Shown: positions 41,831 to 48,790 of the stretch, one piece after another
Layout of the letters: every line of letters begins with the position of its first letter
How positions within the stretch are numbered: the stretch's first letter is position 1
Assembly (NCBI GenBank): GCA_902500005.1
Contig: GCA_902500005.1_3678.1
Source: Escherichia coli
GTDB taxonomy: Bacteria; Pseudomonadota; Gammaproteobacteria; Enterobacterales; Enterobacteriaceae
Direction: 5' to 3' (one strand)
DNA length: 64,000 bases
The notes under the pieces: generated by a model
Seen by the model: the letters and a program-made list of their open reading frames with translations, nothing else
Told to the model about the DNA's origin: nothing
Database searches by the model: none
Position numbers and translations under genes: made by a program

Positions 41831-42168
41831 GTTTGTGGAGAAATATAGTTAACTACGTGTGTGGCAATCCAACTCCTGAAGAGAAGGATGTTGTGATTCA
41901 CGATTTTACTAAAAGATCTCGTGAAAAAGATCTACTGCTGACAAAGGTGACTGATAAAGATCCTGCAGTAGGTGACTGGGCGGGTTTTGCATTTACATCG
42001 GACAAATACACCTTTAACAAAGGTGACTACCTTGTTGTGGATTTTAACGAAGACATCGAGGGTGCTGAACCTTACTATCAGACCCTTATTGTTGCAGGGT
42101 GTGTTGATCTCTCTGCAGGCATGCACAGTTTGATTCTTTTTGAGCTTGACTCTGAAGACCTTGAGTAG
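41827..42168 (+). CDS. hypothetical protein (113 aa)
   Basis: ATG overlapping upstream stop. Confidence 0.4.
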   Translation: MSLWRNIVNYVCGNPTPEEKDVVIHDFTKRSREKDLLLTKVTDKDPAVGDWAGFAFTSDKYTFNKGDYLVVDFNEDIEGAEPYYQTLIVAGCVDLSAGMHSLILFELDSEDLE

Positions 42169-42228
42169 TAAGATGTGAGTCTAAAGGGGAGGCACTCCTC
42201 CCCACAAAAACTAAGGAAGCACTAAACG

Positions 42229-42531
42229 ATGAAACGTTATAAACCATACACTTTTGAAATCGATTTCGAACTTGACGATATGTTTACTGTGGAAGCTCAG
42301 GCAGTTGTCCAGTTGCCAGACCCGGAGTGCCGTGATTCTGATGTTGACTATTACGGATTTAGACAAATTACCGATGTGCATGTTTACCGCAACGGTGAAG
42401 AGGTGGACTTCCACCAACTGCCAAACGATATGCGCCACTCAATTTACAAACGTGCAGCCCGTGAACTAGAGTCCTATCTGGATGCAGCGACGACAGCAGC
42501 TGCATTTGCCGAAGAAGTGGGAGGTTTCTGA
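42229..42531 (+). CDS. hypothetical protein (100 aa)
   Basis: ATG with AAGGAAG RBS. Confidence 0.4.
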   Translation: MKRYKPYTFEIDFELDDMFTVEAQAVVQLPDPECRDSDVDYYGFRQITDVHVYRNGEEVDFHQLPNDMRHSIYKRAARELESYLDAATTAAAFAEEVGGF

Positions 42532-42941: not shown

Positions 42942-43424
42942 ATGTCAGATTTTATGTGGAAAGTAGGTTACGCAGCTCCTGAAATGTGTGAGGCTTGCTT
43001 TGTGAAAATAGGCCGCGAGGATATCGACAAAGTGATCCTTAAGTTTCGTGATGTGGCTGTGATCGGCAACCGAGTGCTTAAGCACTTAAAGAATCTGAAG
43101 CTCACCAAAAAGAAATTCTTCGGGCTTTTCGAAGAGAAAGTTGATGCTTGGACCCATTGCATTCAGGAAGCTAAATCTCACTACAGTGCTATCGTTACCC
43201 CAGAACGGGTAGCCAAGATGGAAGGACTCATCAACAGCACAGAGTTTGAGTGTCTGAAAGCTGCACTCGATAGTTATCCGAAATGCCTCAAGCACTTGGA
43301 CAAGTATGTAGAAAAGGATGGGGAAATGTATCTCACCCTGGACGCATATTATGAGATGCAAGAAATTTTAAATTTAGATTTGACATTGGTATCCACCGAG
43401 TATACAATAGGTATCCGGGTTTAA
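42942..43424 (+). CDS. hypothetical protein (160 aa)
   Basis: ATG with AAGGAG RBS. Confidence 0.45.
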   Translation: MSDFMWKVGYAAPEMCEACFVKIGREDIDKVILKFRDVAVIGNRVLKHLKNLKLTKKKFFGLFEEKVDAWTHCIQEAKSHYSAIVTPERVAKMEGLINSTEFECLKAALDSYPKCLKHLDKYVEKDGEMYLTLDAYYEMQEILNLDLTLVSTEYTIGIRV

Positions 43425-43430
43425 CACTAG

Positions 43431-43457
43431 GCCCTGCCCGAAAGGGTGGGGCTTTTT
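43431..43457 (+). terminator. rho-independent terminator (GAAA tetraloop hairpin), copy 1 of 2
   Basis: gccctgcccgaaagggtggggc + tttttg; identical hairpin at 55048. Confidence 0.55.
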
Positions 43458-43475
43458 GCATTAGGAGACAGCAAA

Positions 43476-44240
43476 TTGAAATTTATCTACAAAGAACACT
43501 ACCACAAAGGTGTTGTGTGGAGCCTATTTGACGGATCTGGTGGTGCAGTCATTGACTGGGCAAAAGCTGGGTATCTGTGCCTGTGCTTTAATGCAGAAGG
43601 TGCTGATCACGGCAGTTATGCAGAGGTGATAACCGATCATCCCAACATTCACTATGTGGATTATTGGATTGACCCATGGTTCCCTCAGGAAACTTTTTGC
43701 ATGTACCCAGCTCCAGACTTTATTCTTGCATTTCCTCCGTGCACGCATTTAGCGGTATCAGGTGCTGCACATTTTAAGAAAAAGCTGGCTAAGGACCCCA
43801 TGATCCAAATTAATGCTGTAAGGGATGCTCGGGTTGCGGAAGAGCTGGGAGAGATTTACGATTGCCCGTGGCATGTAGAGAATCCTGTAGGTGTTATGTC
43901 CACACTGTGGCGCAAACCTGATTACCGTTTTCATCCTTCTGACTATGGCGGGTATTTACCGGAAGATGATGTAAACCCATGGTTTCCTGAATTTATAGCT
44001 CCACGTGATGCCTATCCAAAAATAACTTGCGGCTGGATAGGTAATGGATTTATAATCCCGGCCACAAAACCTGTCCCGCAAATAGTTGACGTGGTTAGCG
44101 GGTATTCCATGCAACACGCCAAGCTGGGTGGAAAGAGTGCAAGAACGAAGATGATTCGAAGCCTCACACCACGTGGCTGGGCAAAAGCCGTATTCTTAGC
44201 AAACGAGCCTGTAGTAAGGAGCAGAATTAATGGGAAGTAA
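43476..44240 (+). CDS. compact DNA cytosine-C5 methyltransferase-like protein (~254 aa)
   Basis: Motif I LFDGSGGA (FxGxGG), motif IV FPPCTHLAVSGA (PC catalytic Cys), motif VI HVENPVG (ENV); only in-frame start after the terminator is TTG 43476, 8 nt after AGGAG. Confidence 0.55.
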   Translation: MKFIYKEHYHKGVVWSLFDGSGGAVIDWAKAGYLCLCFNAEGADHGSYAEVITDHPNIHYVDYWIDPWFPQETFCMYPAPDFILAFPPCTHLAVSGAAHFKKKLAKDPMIQINAVRDARVAEELGEIYDCPWHVENPVGVMSTLWRKPDYRFHPSDYGGYLPEDDVNPWFPEFIAPRDAYPKITCGWIGNGFIIPATKPVPQIVDVVSGYSMQHAKLGGKSARTKMIRSLTPRGWAKAVFLANEPVVRSRINGK

Positions 44241-46308
44241 ATTTATGGCATCTGCATACAACCGTTTCGGTGAGCCAAACCCGAAAGCAACTAAGTATAA
44301 AAGTGGGGGAAGTGTGAAACGAGACTATCGTGATGAAAAAGAAGTTGAAACTGTAGAGACTGTTTTAGAAAATACTAAAATTGTCCCTGTCCCACAACAA
44401 AATATCGGTCTGATGGCTGCACAATATTTTGGTGTGCGATCAGCATTATCCCAAGAAGATGGTGTGACAGTCACTGCAACATATTTCCCATATTACGACC
44501 GCTACGGAAATCTGTCCGGTTTCAAAAAGCGTGACTGGACGATTCCTAAAGAGCAAAGAGGCCATTTCTCCGTTGTTGGCATAGTAAAGGCTAACTCTCA
44601 GATGTTTGGTCAAAAGCTGTGTGCATCTTCCAACAACCGTAAGCAGATTAACGTTTGTGAGGGAGAAGGTGATGTTATTGCAGCATGGCAGGCTGCATAT
44701 CAGATACAAGTAAAAGGGATTCTCACCAACGCTAAAGCCCCGGCAAAGGTGAAACAGTGGGCTAAAGAGGTCCAGGACGGGATCGATGCAGTTATCAACG
44801 GTGGTGATCTGGCAGGAAAACCATGCCTGCCTTTTGTTGGAATTAACTGTGGATGTGCAAACGCAGTAGATACTTTTGCAAACAATGAGAAGTTTATCCG
44901 TAGCTATGGAACAGTTGTGCTGGCAATGGATAACGATGCAGCTAACGAGGTAGAGAAGCAAAAACACGTCATTAAAGGTGTTGAGGCCACGCACAATATC
45001 GCAGCATTTTTGATGGCTGATAACGTTTACCACGTAGAATACCCCGGTGAGGTAAACGATCCTGACGGTGTAAAAGATATCCGTGACATGCTAAAGGCTA
45101 AAAAGCTGGAAGATATTGTAAACATGTTCCGGCATCCTGTTAAGTATGTGCCTGATGCTGTGTCGGATTTAGAAGACTTCTCTATCGAATCTTTGCGGAA
45201 AAAGACTTCCAACGGGGTAGATATCAGCGCAGAGTTTCCAAAACTGCAAAAAATGCTAAAAGGCTTGCACAAAGGGACACTCGTAATGCTTACAGGGCCA
45301 TCAGGGGGCGGTAAAACAACTGTAGCTAAAAAACTGGAACATTGTATTGCAAGATACTTGATGGACCCGACATGCCCGAAGGCCGATGACTATGAAGAGG
45401 ATGATCGTCTATGCATGATCCATCTTGAGGAGGACCCAGAGGAAGCAATTAACTCCTTGTATGCAAACCAGCTAGGGTTTGATGTTAAAGAGTTTGTTGA
45501 AGATCCTAGCCAGTTTTTAACTGATCAAGAACACGCAGAGATTCACCAATCATGGGCAAAAGCTGGAAAAATCAAAGTGTTCAAACATTTCGGGTCTATT
45601 CCGGTGGACGAGTTGATTACCAAGCTTAAGCAAATGGTTTGCCTGTACCATTGCCGTTATATTGTGCTGGATCACCTGTCCATGGTAATTTCGGGGCTTA
45701 ATGTTAAGGATGAGCGAAAAGAACTGGACATGGCTATGACCCAGCTGGCTGCGTTTTGTAAGCAGTTCAATGTGTTTATCTTGGTGATCGCTCACCTCAA
45801 ACGTACAGAGATTGTGCCTCCTAAGGACAAGGATGGTAACCCGTTACCTTTCTGGTATCCTGTGCGAAAAGAGAATTTGCGAGGATCGGCTGGGCTTGAA
45901 CAGTTGAGTTGGGTAGTCATAGGTGTCGAGGCCGAAGAAATGGTGGATCGTTCTCGTGGGCGTGTCCGACTGGTAGGTCTTAAAAACCGTCCAGCAAAAA
46001 CTTTAGGTATTGCAGACACTTTGGTTATGGACCCACATACAGGTAAGTTCCATGATGCCAGTAATTGGTACTGGGACAAAGAAATGCAAATGTTTACAGA
46101 TGGAGAAGGTGGGGAGGTTGTTTGGAGACCTCAGGCTATGTTTGAGGATCAGGAGCATGCAGTTGTAGAAACACCTATGGGTAAGGTTGTGGCTGATAAG
46201 GTTGTAACACCCACTGTCAAGCCTATTGACACGCAGGAAGACCTCCAATACGATGATCCATCCTCTGATCCGGTCCCTGGTTTTGAGGATGATGAAACAC
46301 CTTTTTAA
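44230..46308 (+). CDS. DNA primase-helicase (Toprim + DnaB-like helicase, T7 gp4-like organisation)
   Basis: Toprim EGEGD and MDNDAAN motifs in N-terminal half; Walker A GPSGGGKTT and Walker B IVLDHLS in C-terminal half. Confidence 0.8.
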   Translation: MGSKFMASAYNRFGEPNPKATKYKSGGSVKRDYRDEKEVETVETVLENTKIVPVPQQNIGLMAAQYFGVRSALSQEDGVTVTATYFPYYDRYGNLSGFKKRDWTIPKEQRGHFSVVGIVKANSQMFGQKLCASSNNRKQINVCEGEGDVIAAWQAAYQIQVKGILTNAKAPAKVKQWAKEVQDGIDAVINGGDLAGKPCLPFVGINCGCANAVDTFANNEKFIRSYGTVVLAMDNDAANEVEKQKHVIKGVEATHNIAAFLMADNVYHVEYPGEVNDPDGVKDIRDMLKAKKLEDIVNMFRHPVKYVPDAVSDLEDFSIESLRKKTSNGVDISAEFPKLQKMLKGLHKGTLVMLTGPSGGGKTTVAKKLEHCIARYLMDPTCPKADDYEEDDRLCMIHLEEDPEEAINSLYANQLGFDVKEFVEDPSQFLTDQEHAEIHQSWAKAGKIKVFKHFGSIPVDELITKLKQMVCLYHCRYIVLDHLSMVISGLNVKDERKELDMAMTQLAAFCKQFNVFILVIAHLKRTEIVPPKDKDGNPLPFWYPVRKENLRGSAGLEQLSWVVIGVEAEEMVDRSRGRVRLVGLKNRPAKTLGIADTLVMDPHTGKFHDASNWYWDKEMQMFTDGEGGEVVWRPQAMFEDQEHAVVETPMGKVVADKVVTPTVKPIDTQEDLQYDDPSSDPVPGFEDDETPF

Positions 46309-46366
46309 TGTTTAACAAAGAGTGGGAGGGGTAGTACAACCGCCTCCCCTTTAAGGAGAACTGTAT

Positions 46367-48790
46367 ATGAGCATGTGGTCGTTCGATTTTGAGTCATCCG
46401 GTTTGCTGGAAGACCCAGATCTTTATTATCATTGCGGCCTGTTTAAAGAGCTGAATAAGAACCGTTTTATGCTGTTCCTTCCTCTAAATGACCGCACACA
46501 CTACTCCGAGGAGGATATAGAGAAGGCTAAGAACTTTATTCTGGCAAAGAAAACTCTTTATAAAGATTTTGAAGTTCGCATAGCAGATTTTTCGGAGTTG
46601 GAAGGTTGGCTTACAGGAAATTCCGACTGGTCACCAACAGCTTTGAACTGCCATAACTGCTACAGTTATGACTTTATGCTGATGGAGAGATTATCTGGTA
46701 TTCATTTTGATATGTTCCGTGATCCTAAATGTATGGGGACTATCAACGACCACCAGGTTAACCTGTTCGATACGTTGGCGATGAGCCGAATCTTGTGGCC
46801 TGATCGCCCTTTACCAAAAGGTTGTCCGGACTCTGTATTCAACCCGGTTACTAAGAAAATGCAGCCTGTTGGTCCTCACGGCCTTATGGCATGGGGCTAC
46901 GCTCTTGGTAACCAGAAAGTTCAAATTGATGACTGGCGCGATCTTCCGCTGTGGAAGTATGTGGATCGTGTATTCGAGGACGTTATCATCCAGGAGTTGC
47001 TCTGGAAAGAGCTGGTAGCGGAATCAAAAGGTGTATTCTACGGCAAATCTGACATGCAGAACTTTATGTACGATCCTGCCAAAGAGAAGCCAAAAGGGTT
47101 CAAGAAGATCACCTGGAAGAACGCATTACGCCGAGGCATGCTGCAGCACTTCCTGATGGAGCTGCAGGCCCGTCAGGGTGTGTATTTCGACATAGACGGG
47201 GCTATTGCTTTACGTGACCGTTGCGATGCGTGGATGAAAGAAATAGCTGATCGTGTTGAACCACAACTACCTTTAAAAGAGCTGTCAATGTCTCAGCGGC
47301 CCAAGTTCCCTGAAAAGCCGTTTAACCAAGATGGGACAATCTCCAATAATGGTTGGAAATGGTTAAAAGATAAGCTTGGCTATCCTGTAGACATGAGCGC
47401 TTTAGAGTTCAAAGCCCCACCTAAGCGAGCATTTACCTCCACAGGAGATGTCAGTAAAATGGGGATAAAATGGTGTGAAGAGATGGGCTGCAAAGACCCA
47501 GACAAGATGGCTGATTTCTTGAGAGGTTATATTAAGGGCACCTCCACACCACAACCTTTACCTAAAGAGCTGATGGATCAGGCAATAAGCGATCTGCAGC
47601 AGAAGCGAATGCCTGACTGCAAGATACCTATGAAAATCAGCAATCAGGACGATATTAAGCGATACCTGATCAGTGCTGGTTGGCTTCCGACAATGTGGAG
47701 AACTAAGGATGTAACTAAAGACAGCAAGAAGAAAGCTCTACCTGATGCAGATGTTGATGCACGAGTATATGCATATATGGACGAGCTTTTAGAGTCAGAG
47801 TATTGTGACCTGATTATCAACTTCTGGAACAAAACTGATGCTAAGTTCCAGACAACCGTGCACAAGTTCCGAAGCTTTCCTAACTCCGAAAGGATTAAAA
47901 AGGAAGTATTCGGGAAAATACGTAGAAAAGCCAGGGCACTTATTACTTCTCCGCAACTGAAAGATACGTTTGGACACCTATGTCCGAATCTTGAAAAATT
48001 GAACGGAGAGATGGCTAAAGATATCGTCTTGTGGTTATCATTGCGAAACCGCAGATCGGTCCTTGATCCAATTAAGGAGGATAAGGTTGATACTGGTCTT
48101 CTTAATCACCCACGTTTGAAGATTGACCATAAGCTTCCTGCTAAAAGCTCTGGATTAACAAACACTTCCAGACAGAAACACAGTATTTGTGCAAACATGC
48201 CTAAACCATCTCCTAAAGTGGTTATGGGTAAAGAGATGCGTAGTCTGTGGGGTGTTCCTCCAGGATACTTTGAGATCGGTATTGACGGGTCCAACTTAGA
48301 GCAGCTTATCGGGGCTTGGGGTGCCTTTGAGTTCGACAACGGCTTGTATTATGATGTTGTAAGTAACGGGGACGCACACCAAAACAATGCTGAGGCATAT
48401 ACAAAAGTAGCAGGCAGAGAGGTGTCTCGTAACGACGGTAAACCTATCACGTATGGGGTTATGTACGGGGCACAAAAAGATAAAGTTGCAGATATGCTGG
48501 ACATCTCTCCAGAGTTGGGACAAAGGGTGATCGATGCACTTTGGGATGCCAACCCTGGTCTTAAGGGGCGTAAAGAGGATCTGGAGAAATTCTGGGAAGC
48601 AACGGGTAAGAAGTTTATCTACTCTTTTGATGGTCATGCCATCTGGACCCGATCTAAACACTCTTTACTTAATGCATACCAACAGAATGGTGGTGCATCG
48701 CTGTGTGACTTAGTTGGGATACTTATGCACCACCAAATGGTGAAGCGTGGGTGGTACGATGAAGGTGTTCGTCGTATTATCTATTACCAT
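46367..48790 (+). CDS. DNA polymerase, family A, exon 1 (808 codons; 3'-5' exonuclease + polymerase motifs A and B)
   Basis: Exo I FDFESSG; motif A DGSNLEQ; motif B RNDGKPITYGVMYG; ORF stops 2 codons after …IIYYH, just before the expected motif C. Confidence 0.85.

Follow-up and report, generated by a model that had tools for sequence, protein, structure and literature searches.

A compact, probable cytosine-C5 DNA methyltransferase of phage family PHROG 757, encoded upstream of a primase-helicase gene in Vequintavirus-like DNA

How far can a cytosine-C5 DNA methyltransferase (C5-MTase) be trimmed, and does a short gene beside the replication genes of a phage encode such an enzyme? The question is raised by positions 43476..44240 (+ strand) of the window, the stretch of 64,000 nucleotides analysed here as a whole, in which a compact gene for a 254-aa protein runs from a TTG start to a TAA stop. 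An earlier note, made from the letters alone, saw either a minimal or orphan methyltransferase or an enzyme of methyltransferase fold that performs a different C5 modification. The first interpretation is favoured by our analysis and the second is disfavoured, since a tested relative, the Dcm-like protein of phage K42, makes 5-methylcytosine (5mC). We regard the gene product as a member of the compact phage family PHROG 757 and as likely to be a single-domain DNA cytosine-C5 methyltransferase that depends on SAM and is encoded as an orphan.

At 98-100% identity, the DNA around the gene matches rV5-like coliphages of the genus Vequintavirus, among them JES2013, O157 typing phage 4, isim and rV5. 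A methyltransferase reading is already public: identical sequences are annotated, the family is abundant and one member has been tested. Labels in public records range from hypothetical, through "DNA methyltransferase", "DNA cytosine methyltransferase" and "putative site specific DNA methylase", to "Dcm-like C5 cytosine methyltransferase". Apart from its target sequence the gene is ordinary, and with annotation and the activity of a family member both published, confirmation would add little. Sixteen 'Campylobacter phage' records with Campylobacter jejuni as host (e.g. MG065644, MG065690) are also 98-99% identical to positions 43400-44300 of the window, and further records of the MG0656xx series match Drexlerviridae-like genes. 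The host labels of that series appear doubtful.

Gene boundaries, leader signals and neighbours

Called mechanically, the open reading frame begins at GTG 43446 and ends with the TAA at 44238-44240 on the + strand. This GTG, the start given in the RefSeq JES2013 record, was rejected, as it lies inside a terminator stem and lacks a properly spaced ribosome-binding site (RBS). The earlier note had held that no in-frame ATG occurs between the upstream terminator and motif I, and that translation starts at TTG 43476 behind AGGAG. Both points are borne out. The first in-frame ATG is Met76, 3′ of motif I, and the Shine-Dalgarno sequence AGGAG (43463..43467, + strand) lies 8 nt 5′ of the TTG. The curated GenBank records of BASEL phage Bas55 JeffSchatz and CPT phage LL12 annotate the same TTG, the LL12 record also assigning this AGGAG to the gene as its RBS, and the 141 nt surrounding the start, AGGAG included, are invariant across three Vequintaviruses. 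The metagenome relative L010 (79% identity) has GTG at the homologous start codon, preceded by AGGAGG. In a second relative, L009, the start is an ATG ten codons farther in, and the first ten residues therefore appear dispensable. That the TTG-started gene is real, beyond chance, is evident from dN/dS values of 0.04-0.12 among Vequintavirus orthologs (0.10 between two relatives at 79% identity) and from its match to PHROG 757 at E = 8.6e-87.

Between the upstream ORF of 160 aa and the methyltransferase gene lies an intrinsic-terminator-like hairpin with a T-run (43429..43459, + strand), which overlaps the alternative GTG. The terminator scan delimits the hairpin at 43429-43454, with an 11-bp stem (7 GC) followed by TTTTT, and the RNA fold of 43415-43480 returns a structure of -22.8 kcal/mol with an 11-bp stem. 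The hairpin is kept in L009 with two base differences. It may be a leaky terminator, an insulator or a 5′ stabiliser of the transcript that carries the methyltransferase, primase-helicase and polymerase genes. Within the 3′ end of the upstream ORF, a promoter scan detects a sigma-70-like sequence, TTGACA-17-TACAAT (11/12; 43380..43408, + strand), the counterpart of which in L009 (79% identity) is TTGACA-17-TATGAT. It is possible that the candidate promoter drives the same three-gene unit. It stands about 20 nt before the hairpin, which its transcripts would enter directly.

The gene is flanked upstream by the 160-aa hypothetical protein and downstream by the primase-helicase gene (44230..46308, + strand; from ORFs and annotations). 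As the earlier note had observed, it lies directly upstream of the latter: it ends 11 nt into the primase-helicase ORF, whose ATG at 44230 opens the overlap with the methyltransferase stop region (ATGGGAAGTAA, 44230-44240). With such an 11-nt overlap, translation of the methyltransferase is likely to be coupled to that of the replisome genes. A comparable overlap (about 8-11 nt by called gene coordinates) recurs with the same synteny in L009 and L010, and the wider order of PIF1-like helicase, small ORFs, methyltransferase, primase-helicase and DNA polymerase is kept in the 137-kb L009 and partly in L010. Elsewhere in the family, the gene occupies early or replication regions: it adjoins an SNF2-type helicase and an HNH gene in SECphi18, lies between the primase-helicase and polymerase genes in CR8, and is found among small early genes in RB49.

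The flanks of the gene consist of small hypothetical proteins and replication genes, with no restriction endonuclease gene beside it as a type II restriction-modification (R-M) system would have. Nor is a cognate endonuclease partner adjoining or recurrent in the contexts inspected (JES2013, JeffSchatz, LL12, L009, KarlJaspers, SECphi18, CR8 and RB49). The gene is an orphan methyltransferase gene.

Two junctions near the gene differ between phages. At 42168-42229, the window is without the gene of about 1.3 kb for an N6-adenine (BamHI-methylase-like) methyltransferase carried by JES2013, isim, MaxBurger and others. At 46308-46367, it is without the 735-bp HNH endonuclease gene found between the primase-helicase and DNA polymerase genes of JES2013. 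Phage phiWec189 is collinear with the window. The absent genes resemble mobile or indel genes, and in this region of the window the compact C5-MTase is the sole methyltransferase remaining.

Family membership and motif map

The match to PHROG 757 ("DNA methyltransferase") is full-length, pairing residues 2-251 with positions 5-226 of the 247 in the profile. Placement in a non-methyltransferase Rossmann family, which would have spoken against the earlier note, did not occur. Pfam and NCBIfam scans of the query gave no match, and PF00145 was not found even at E <= 10. Three family members 55-56% identical to the query (P0054, P0069 and P0070) do pass PF00145, at 24.7-28.5 bits against a cutoff of 22, with matches confined to profile positions 4-94 (motifs I-IV). 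Hits to PF14026, a nickel-responsive protein family (E 0.11), and to the sperm-tail protein 8otz (E 0.097) were set aside as noise.

Like the query, members of the family are orphan single-domain phage proteins of about 210-260 aa. A word-indexed search recovers more than 3,500 clusters at 90% identity, and an exhaustive profile search recovers 2,019 clusters at 50% identity (E <= 1e-3), mostly of 210-260 aa. By tblastn, a family gene is present in 1,505 of 50,697 phage records, including Drexlerviridae, Dhillonvirus, Krischvirus (RB49), Phapecoctavirus, Certrevirus, Klebsiella siphoviruses and Vibrio, Roseobacter and Pelagibacter phages. With about 3% of sequenced phages carrying a member, the family is very common; what is known of its recognition sequence is indirect.

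Motif conservation was counted over 115 family representatives. The profile of these 115 sequences was also aligned by hhalign with DNMT3A, in a sequence identical to PDB chain 5yx2_A (E 5e-5; the C-terminal part of the alignment is unreliable). The three motifs that the earlier note had named are all in place: LFDGSGGA at residues 17-24, FPPCTHLAVSGA at 86-97 and HVENPVG at 133-139. Motif I, the SAM-binding loop (LFDGSGG, residues 17-23; 43524..43544, + strand), aligns with SLFDGIATG of DNMT3B/3A and SLFSGAGG of HaeIII, and the FxGxG pattern is present as F18-D-G20-S-G22 within S-L-F-D-G-S-G (16-22). G22 is found in 84 of the 115 representatives; G20 is not conserved in the wider family, where Tyr, His or Arg usually takes its place. 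In P0002 / L010 and P0004 / L009, the nearest relatives outside Vequintavirus (79% identity), the second motif I glycine gives way to Glu (FDGSE) or Asp (FNGSD), an uncommon change in a SAM-binding loop. The cofactor loop of PHROG 757 enzymes is unusually tolerant of change, and their cofactor binding may be atypical.

Motif II falls at the end of strand 34-39, where Asn39 is common to the query and the ortholog in phage KarlJaspers and most of the family has Asp; motif III contributes Asp66. Motif IV (FPPCT, residues 86-90; 43731..43745, + strand) supplies the catalytic Pro-Cys pair, with Cys89 aligned to C710 of DNMT3A, C81 of HhaI and C82 of K42 Dcm. This cysteine is kept in 107 of the 115 representatives. 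The threonine after it, pointed out earlier as a substitute for the canonical Gln, is indeed present but is no peculiarity of this protein, being the family norm (99/115); DNMT3A and DNMT3B, for their part, have PCN. Motif VI (VENP, residues 134-137; 43875..43886, + strand) aligns with ENV of DNMT3A, and its catalytic Glu135, equivalent to E128 of K42 Dcm, is conserved in 112 of the 115 sequences, Asn136 in 106 and Pro137 in 113.

The remainder of the protein is less orthodox. The strand equivalent to motif VIII (DAYPKITCGW, residues 178-187; 44007..44036, + strand) has Y180-P-K182-I-T184 in place of QxRxR, with K182 and T184 at the two canonical arginine positions. The hhalign alignment to DNMT3A equates K182 with R790, T184 with R792 and W187 with W795, and K182 also corresponds to K175 of K42 Dcm. 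D178, Y180, K182, T184 and W187 each occur in at least 104 of the 115 representatives, K182 and T184 being near-invariant.

The earlier note had remarked that about 250 residues leave little room for a target-recognition domain (TRD), and this is so: no separate TRD was found. At the TRD position of the 254-aa protein sits a short variable loop (residues 196-223; 44061..44144, + strand), which across the family spans 24-28 aa between the GNGFxxP strand and the LGGKS motif. Its classes include GYSxQH with a clade-specific 4-aa insertion (the query), NPGW (K42/KarlJaspers) and CFWGW (CR8).

Beyond the loop, a conserved motif (RSLTPRGWAKAVF, residues 228-240; 44157..44195, + strand), which begins R228-S-L-T-P-R233, runs into the last helix, predicted as the 19 residues 233-251, and would be equivalent to motif IX or X. 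It has a weak, non-significant local likeness both to motif IX of E. coli Dcm and HhaI and to motif X of DNMT3A, and local alignment of the last 40 residues with DNMT3A, HhaI and HaeIII gives three conflicting, non-significant registrations. Profile comparison over motifs VIII-X, proposed earlier as a check, placed the motif VIII equivalent (by hhalign with DNMT3A) and, at the level of sequence, gave no single correspondence for motifs IX and X. The stretch RSLTPRGWAKAV (residues 228-240) shares 6 of 12 residues with motif IX of E. coli Dcm (RRLTPRECARLM), but occupies the place where the motif X helix should start. An ancestral deletion may thus have joined motifs IX and X into one. The true departures from textbook C5-MTases are the absence of the motif VIII arginine pair, the missing TRD and the apparent merging of motifs IX and X.

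Activity, substrate and biological role

Activity in the family is documented for one member. Escape mutants of phage K42 selected by retron Ec86 (Eco1) all hit a 711-bp "Dcm-like" gene, in a genome 95% identical to that of BASEL phage KarlJaspers, and expression of K42 Dcm raised 5mC on the retron msDNA as measured by LC-MS (bioRxiv 10.1101/2023.08.16.553469). The quadruple mutant C82A/E128A/K175A/K176A, in which the four residues were changed only together, gave no such rise; the residues had been chosen by superposing an AlphaFold model on DNMT3A (bioRxiv 10.1101/2023.08.16.553469). The query is 54% identical over 235 aa (E 3e-86) to the KarlJaspers ortholog Bas06_0055, also of 711 bp, whose C82, E128, K175 and K176 align with C89, E135, K182 and I183: the first three are conserved and the last is replaced. 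The family therefore includes an active 5mC-forming enzyme that has the query's odd features (PCT, ENP, K-x-T and the motif II Asn).

These comparisons bear on whether the protein might be catalytically dead in Vequintaviruses, a DNA-binding or regulatory remnant of a methyltransferase. The absent motif VIII arginines, Ile183 in place of K176, the acidic residues at the second motif I glycine in close relatives and the lack of R-M protection in Vequintaviruses would all suit such a remnant. However, strong purifying selection has preserved Cys89 and Glu135 as well as the residues of motifs I, III and VI, and K-x-T at motif VIII and the motif II Asn are common to the KarlJaspers ortholog of the tested K42 enzyme. 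We consider loss of activity very improbable.

C5-MTase chemistry could also deliver a group other than methyl, either carboxymethyl from Cx-SAM supplied by E. coli CmoA, as in phage CmoX, or some other C5 adduct. CmoX takes Cx-SAM as its donor, and its gene has cmoA and ligase genes linked to it in the phage (PMC12783734). When the query was checked for the CmoX signature, Arg233 possibly fell at the position equivalent to N304 of HhaI, in an ambiguous alignment, and the catalytic motif read FPPC rather than SPPC. Motif X of DNMT3A also has an arginine (R891), and DNMT3A nevertheless uses SAM. The annotations of JES2013, JeffSchatz and LL12 show no linked cmoA or amide-ligase (cmoY) gene over about 4 kb. 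Further, K42 Dcm gave 5mC in cmoA-positive E. coli MG1655, and the ready restriction of Vequintavirinae DNA argues against a bulky global modification. Transfer of a non-methyl group is thus hard to credit, and methylation remains the preferred reading.

The substrate might be something other than duplex phage DNA, either RNA, such as a tRNA of phage or host in the manner of DNMT2, or DNA in single-stranded or hairpin form at the replication fork. The protein has the class I methyltransferase fold specific to C5-MTases, and its closest structural matches (DNMT3B/3A, the prophage methyltransferase 3g7u and HhaI) are DNA enzymes that all score above DNMT2. The family occurs in many small phages, and the KarlJaspers record is without tRNA features in the first 50 kb of its 51.5 kb. 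The region of msDNA targeted in the K42 study is a double-stranded stem (bioRxiv 10.1101/2023.08.16.553469). A non-duplex or RNA substrate appears very improbable: both it and an inactive remnant are at odds with the ranking of the fold matches and with the purifying selection that keeps the catalytic residues.

If the protein is a DNA cytosine methyltransferase, as we favour, its gene would share a transcript with the primase-helicase and DNA polymerase genes, probably with coupled translation, so that the enzyme is made during phage DNA replication. By analogy with all C5-MTases, Cys89 of FPPC would attack C6 of a flipped-out cytosine and Glu135 of ENP would protonate N3. SAM, held by motifs I-III and the C-terminal helix, would donate its methyl group to C5, and beta-elimination would release 5mC. 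Lys182 probably stands in for the canonical motif VIII arginine. For want of a separate TRD, sequence recognition would fall to the 24-28 aa loop together with the catalytic loop. In this the protein would resemble the DNMT3 enzymes, and action as a dimer is likewise conceivable.

The likely role would be methylation of phage DNA at a short motif, blunting some 5mC-sensitive restriction enzymes, with the side effect of exposing such enzymes to detection by retron Eco1 (Ec86). A putative anti-restriction role of the Vequintavirus enzyme, as the earlier note had surmised, is plausible. Any protection must be narrow, since Vequintavirinae proved "exceptionally susceptible" to the R-M systems tested in the BASEL study (PMC8594841). 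Literature searches found no methylome or nanopore data on Vequintavirus DNA, and the rV5 genome paper reports XbaI digestion only. To our knowledge, none of the BASEL-tested R-M systems is blocked by CCWGG methylation. Vequintaviruses presumably plate on mcrBC-positive K-12, which makes it unlikely that the sites they modify are frequent R-5mC contexts.

CCWGG is the specificity attributed to K42 Dcm. It was assumed from E. coli Dcm rather than mapped, mutation of CCTGG in the msDNA abolished defence, and the work used dcm-positive MG1655, in which msDNA methylation was low without the phage enzyme (bioRxiv 10.1101/2023.08.16.553469). Given that assumption, the dcm-positive host and the query's lack of significant similarity to Dcm, CCWGG specificity of the K42 phage enzyme is putative. 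It is in any case not transferable to the query, because the putative recognition loops are of different classes. CCWGG sites in the window (114, against 115.8 +/- 10.4 expected) are neither depleted nor enriched, a count that says nothing on specificity. With its own loop variant (GYSMQH plus the 4-aa insertion) and Ile183, the Vequintavirus clade may target another motif.

We offer, as a tentative and rather doubtful extension, that PHROG 757 enzymes form a distinct TRD-less lineage of C5-MTases, the smallest active ones known and structurally nearer to DNMT3 than to bacterial R-M methylases. They would read DNA through the 24-28 aa loop, perhaps as dimers or on fork or hairpin DNA, with a Vequintavirus target that is perhaps not CCWGG and a role possibly beyond classical anti-restriction. 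The family shows how far a C5-MTase can be trimmed: it dispenses with a TRD and with the motif VIII arginines, and it apparently merges motifs IX and X. This reduction commends it as a minimal scaffold for engineering. Such enzymes serve in counter-defence and also trigger retron Eco1, so that knowing which phages carry active copies helps to predict the outcome of defence.

Comparison with known methyltransferases

Sequence searches relate the query to the classical C5-MTases only distantly. Phmmer and profile searches of PDB sequences returned C5-MTase matches that were all sub-significant (E 0.16-1), and a 24-sequence alignment compared by hhalign with HhaI or E. coli Dcm matched no further than motifs I-IV, with poor statistics. 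The catalytic domains of DNMT3A and DNMT3B are 14-15% identical to the query and share its lack of a Gln after the PC pair. Unlike the query, DNMT3 enzymes keep both R790 and R792 of motif VIII, have a TRD of about 50 aa and have separate motifs IX and X. They also act on CpG as DNMT3L-assisted tetramers.

M.HhaI and M.HaeIII, members of PF00145, differ from the query in size (327-330 aa), in a TRD or small domain of about 80-100 aa, and in their PCQ, ENV and QxRxR motifs and distinct motifs IX and X; the query has no PF00145 match at all. E. coli Dcm (CCWGG, 472 aa) is the namesake of several annotations, and it has a short RxLTPR motif in common with the query and presumably a like chemistry. 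The query is about half its size, has no adjacent vsr gene and shows no significant similarity to it (best BLASTP E 1.2; hhalign E 0.19), so that orthology is not supported. CmoX (PDB 8yf3) is likewise larger, at 333 aa in the crystal chain, and has the SPPC motif in place of FPPC.

The closest parallel is the K42/KarlJaspers enzyme. Both proteins have the FDGSG form of motif I, CFN at motif II, FPPCT, ENP, K-x-T-C-x-W and RSLTPRG; they belong to the same size class (254 versus 236 aa) and are encoded by orphan genes of an early or replication region. They differ in the loop at the TRD position, which contains GYSMQH and the 4-aa insertion in the query and DKDNPGW in K42/KarlJaspers, in His91 for Asp after PCT, in Ile183 for K176, and in an N-terminus that is 10 aa longer in the query. 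Their carriers also differ, the query belonging to a 137-kb myovirus and its counterpart to KarlJaspers, a 51-kb siphovirus of the Drexlerviridae.
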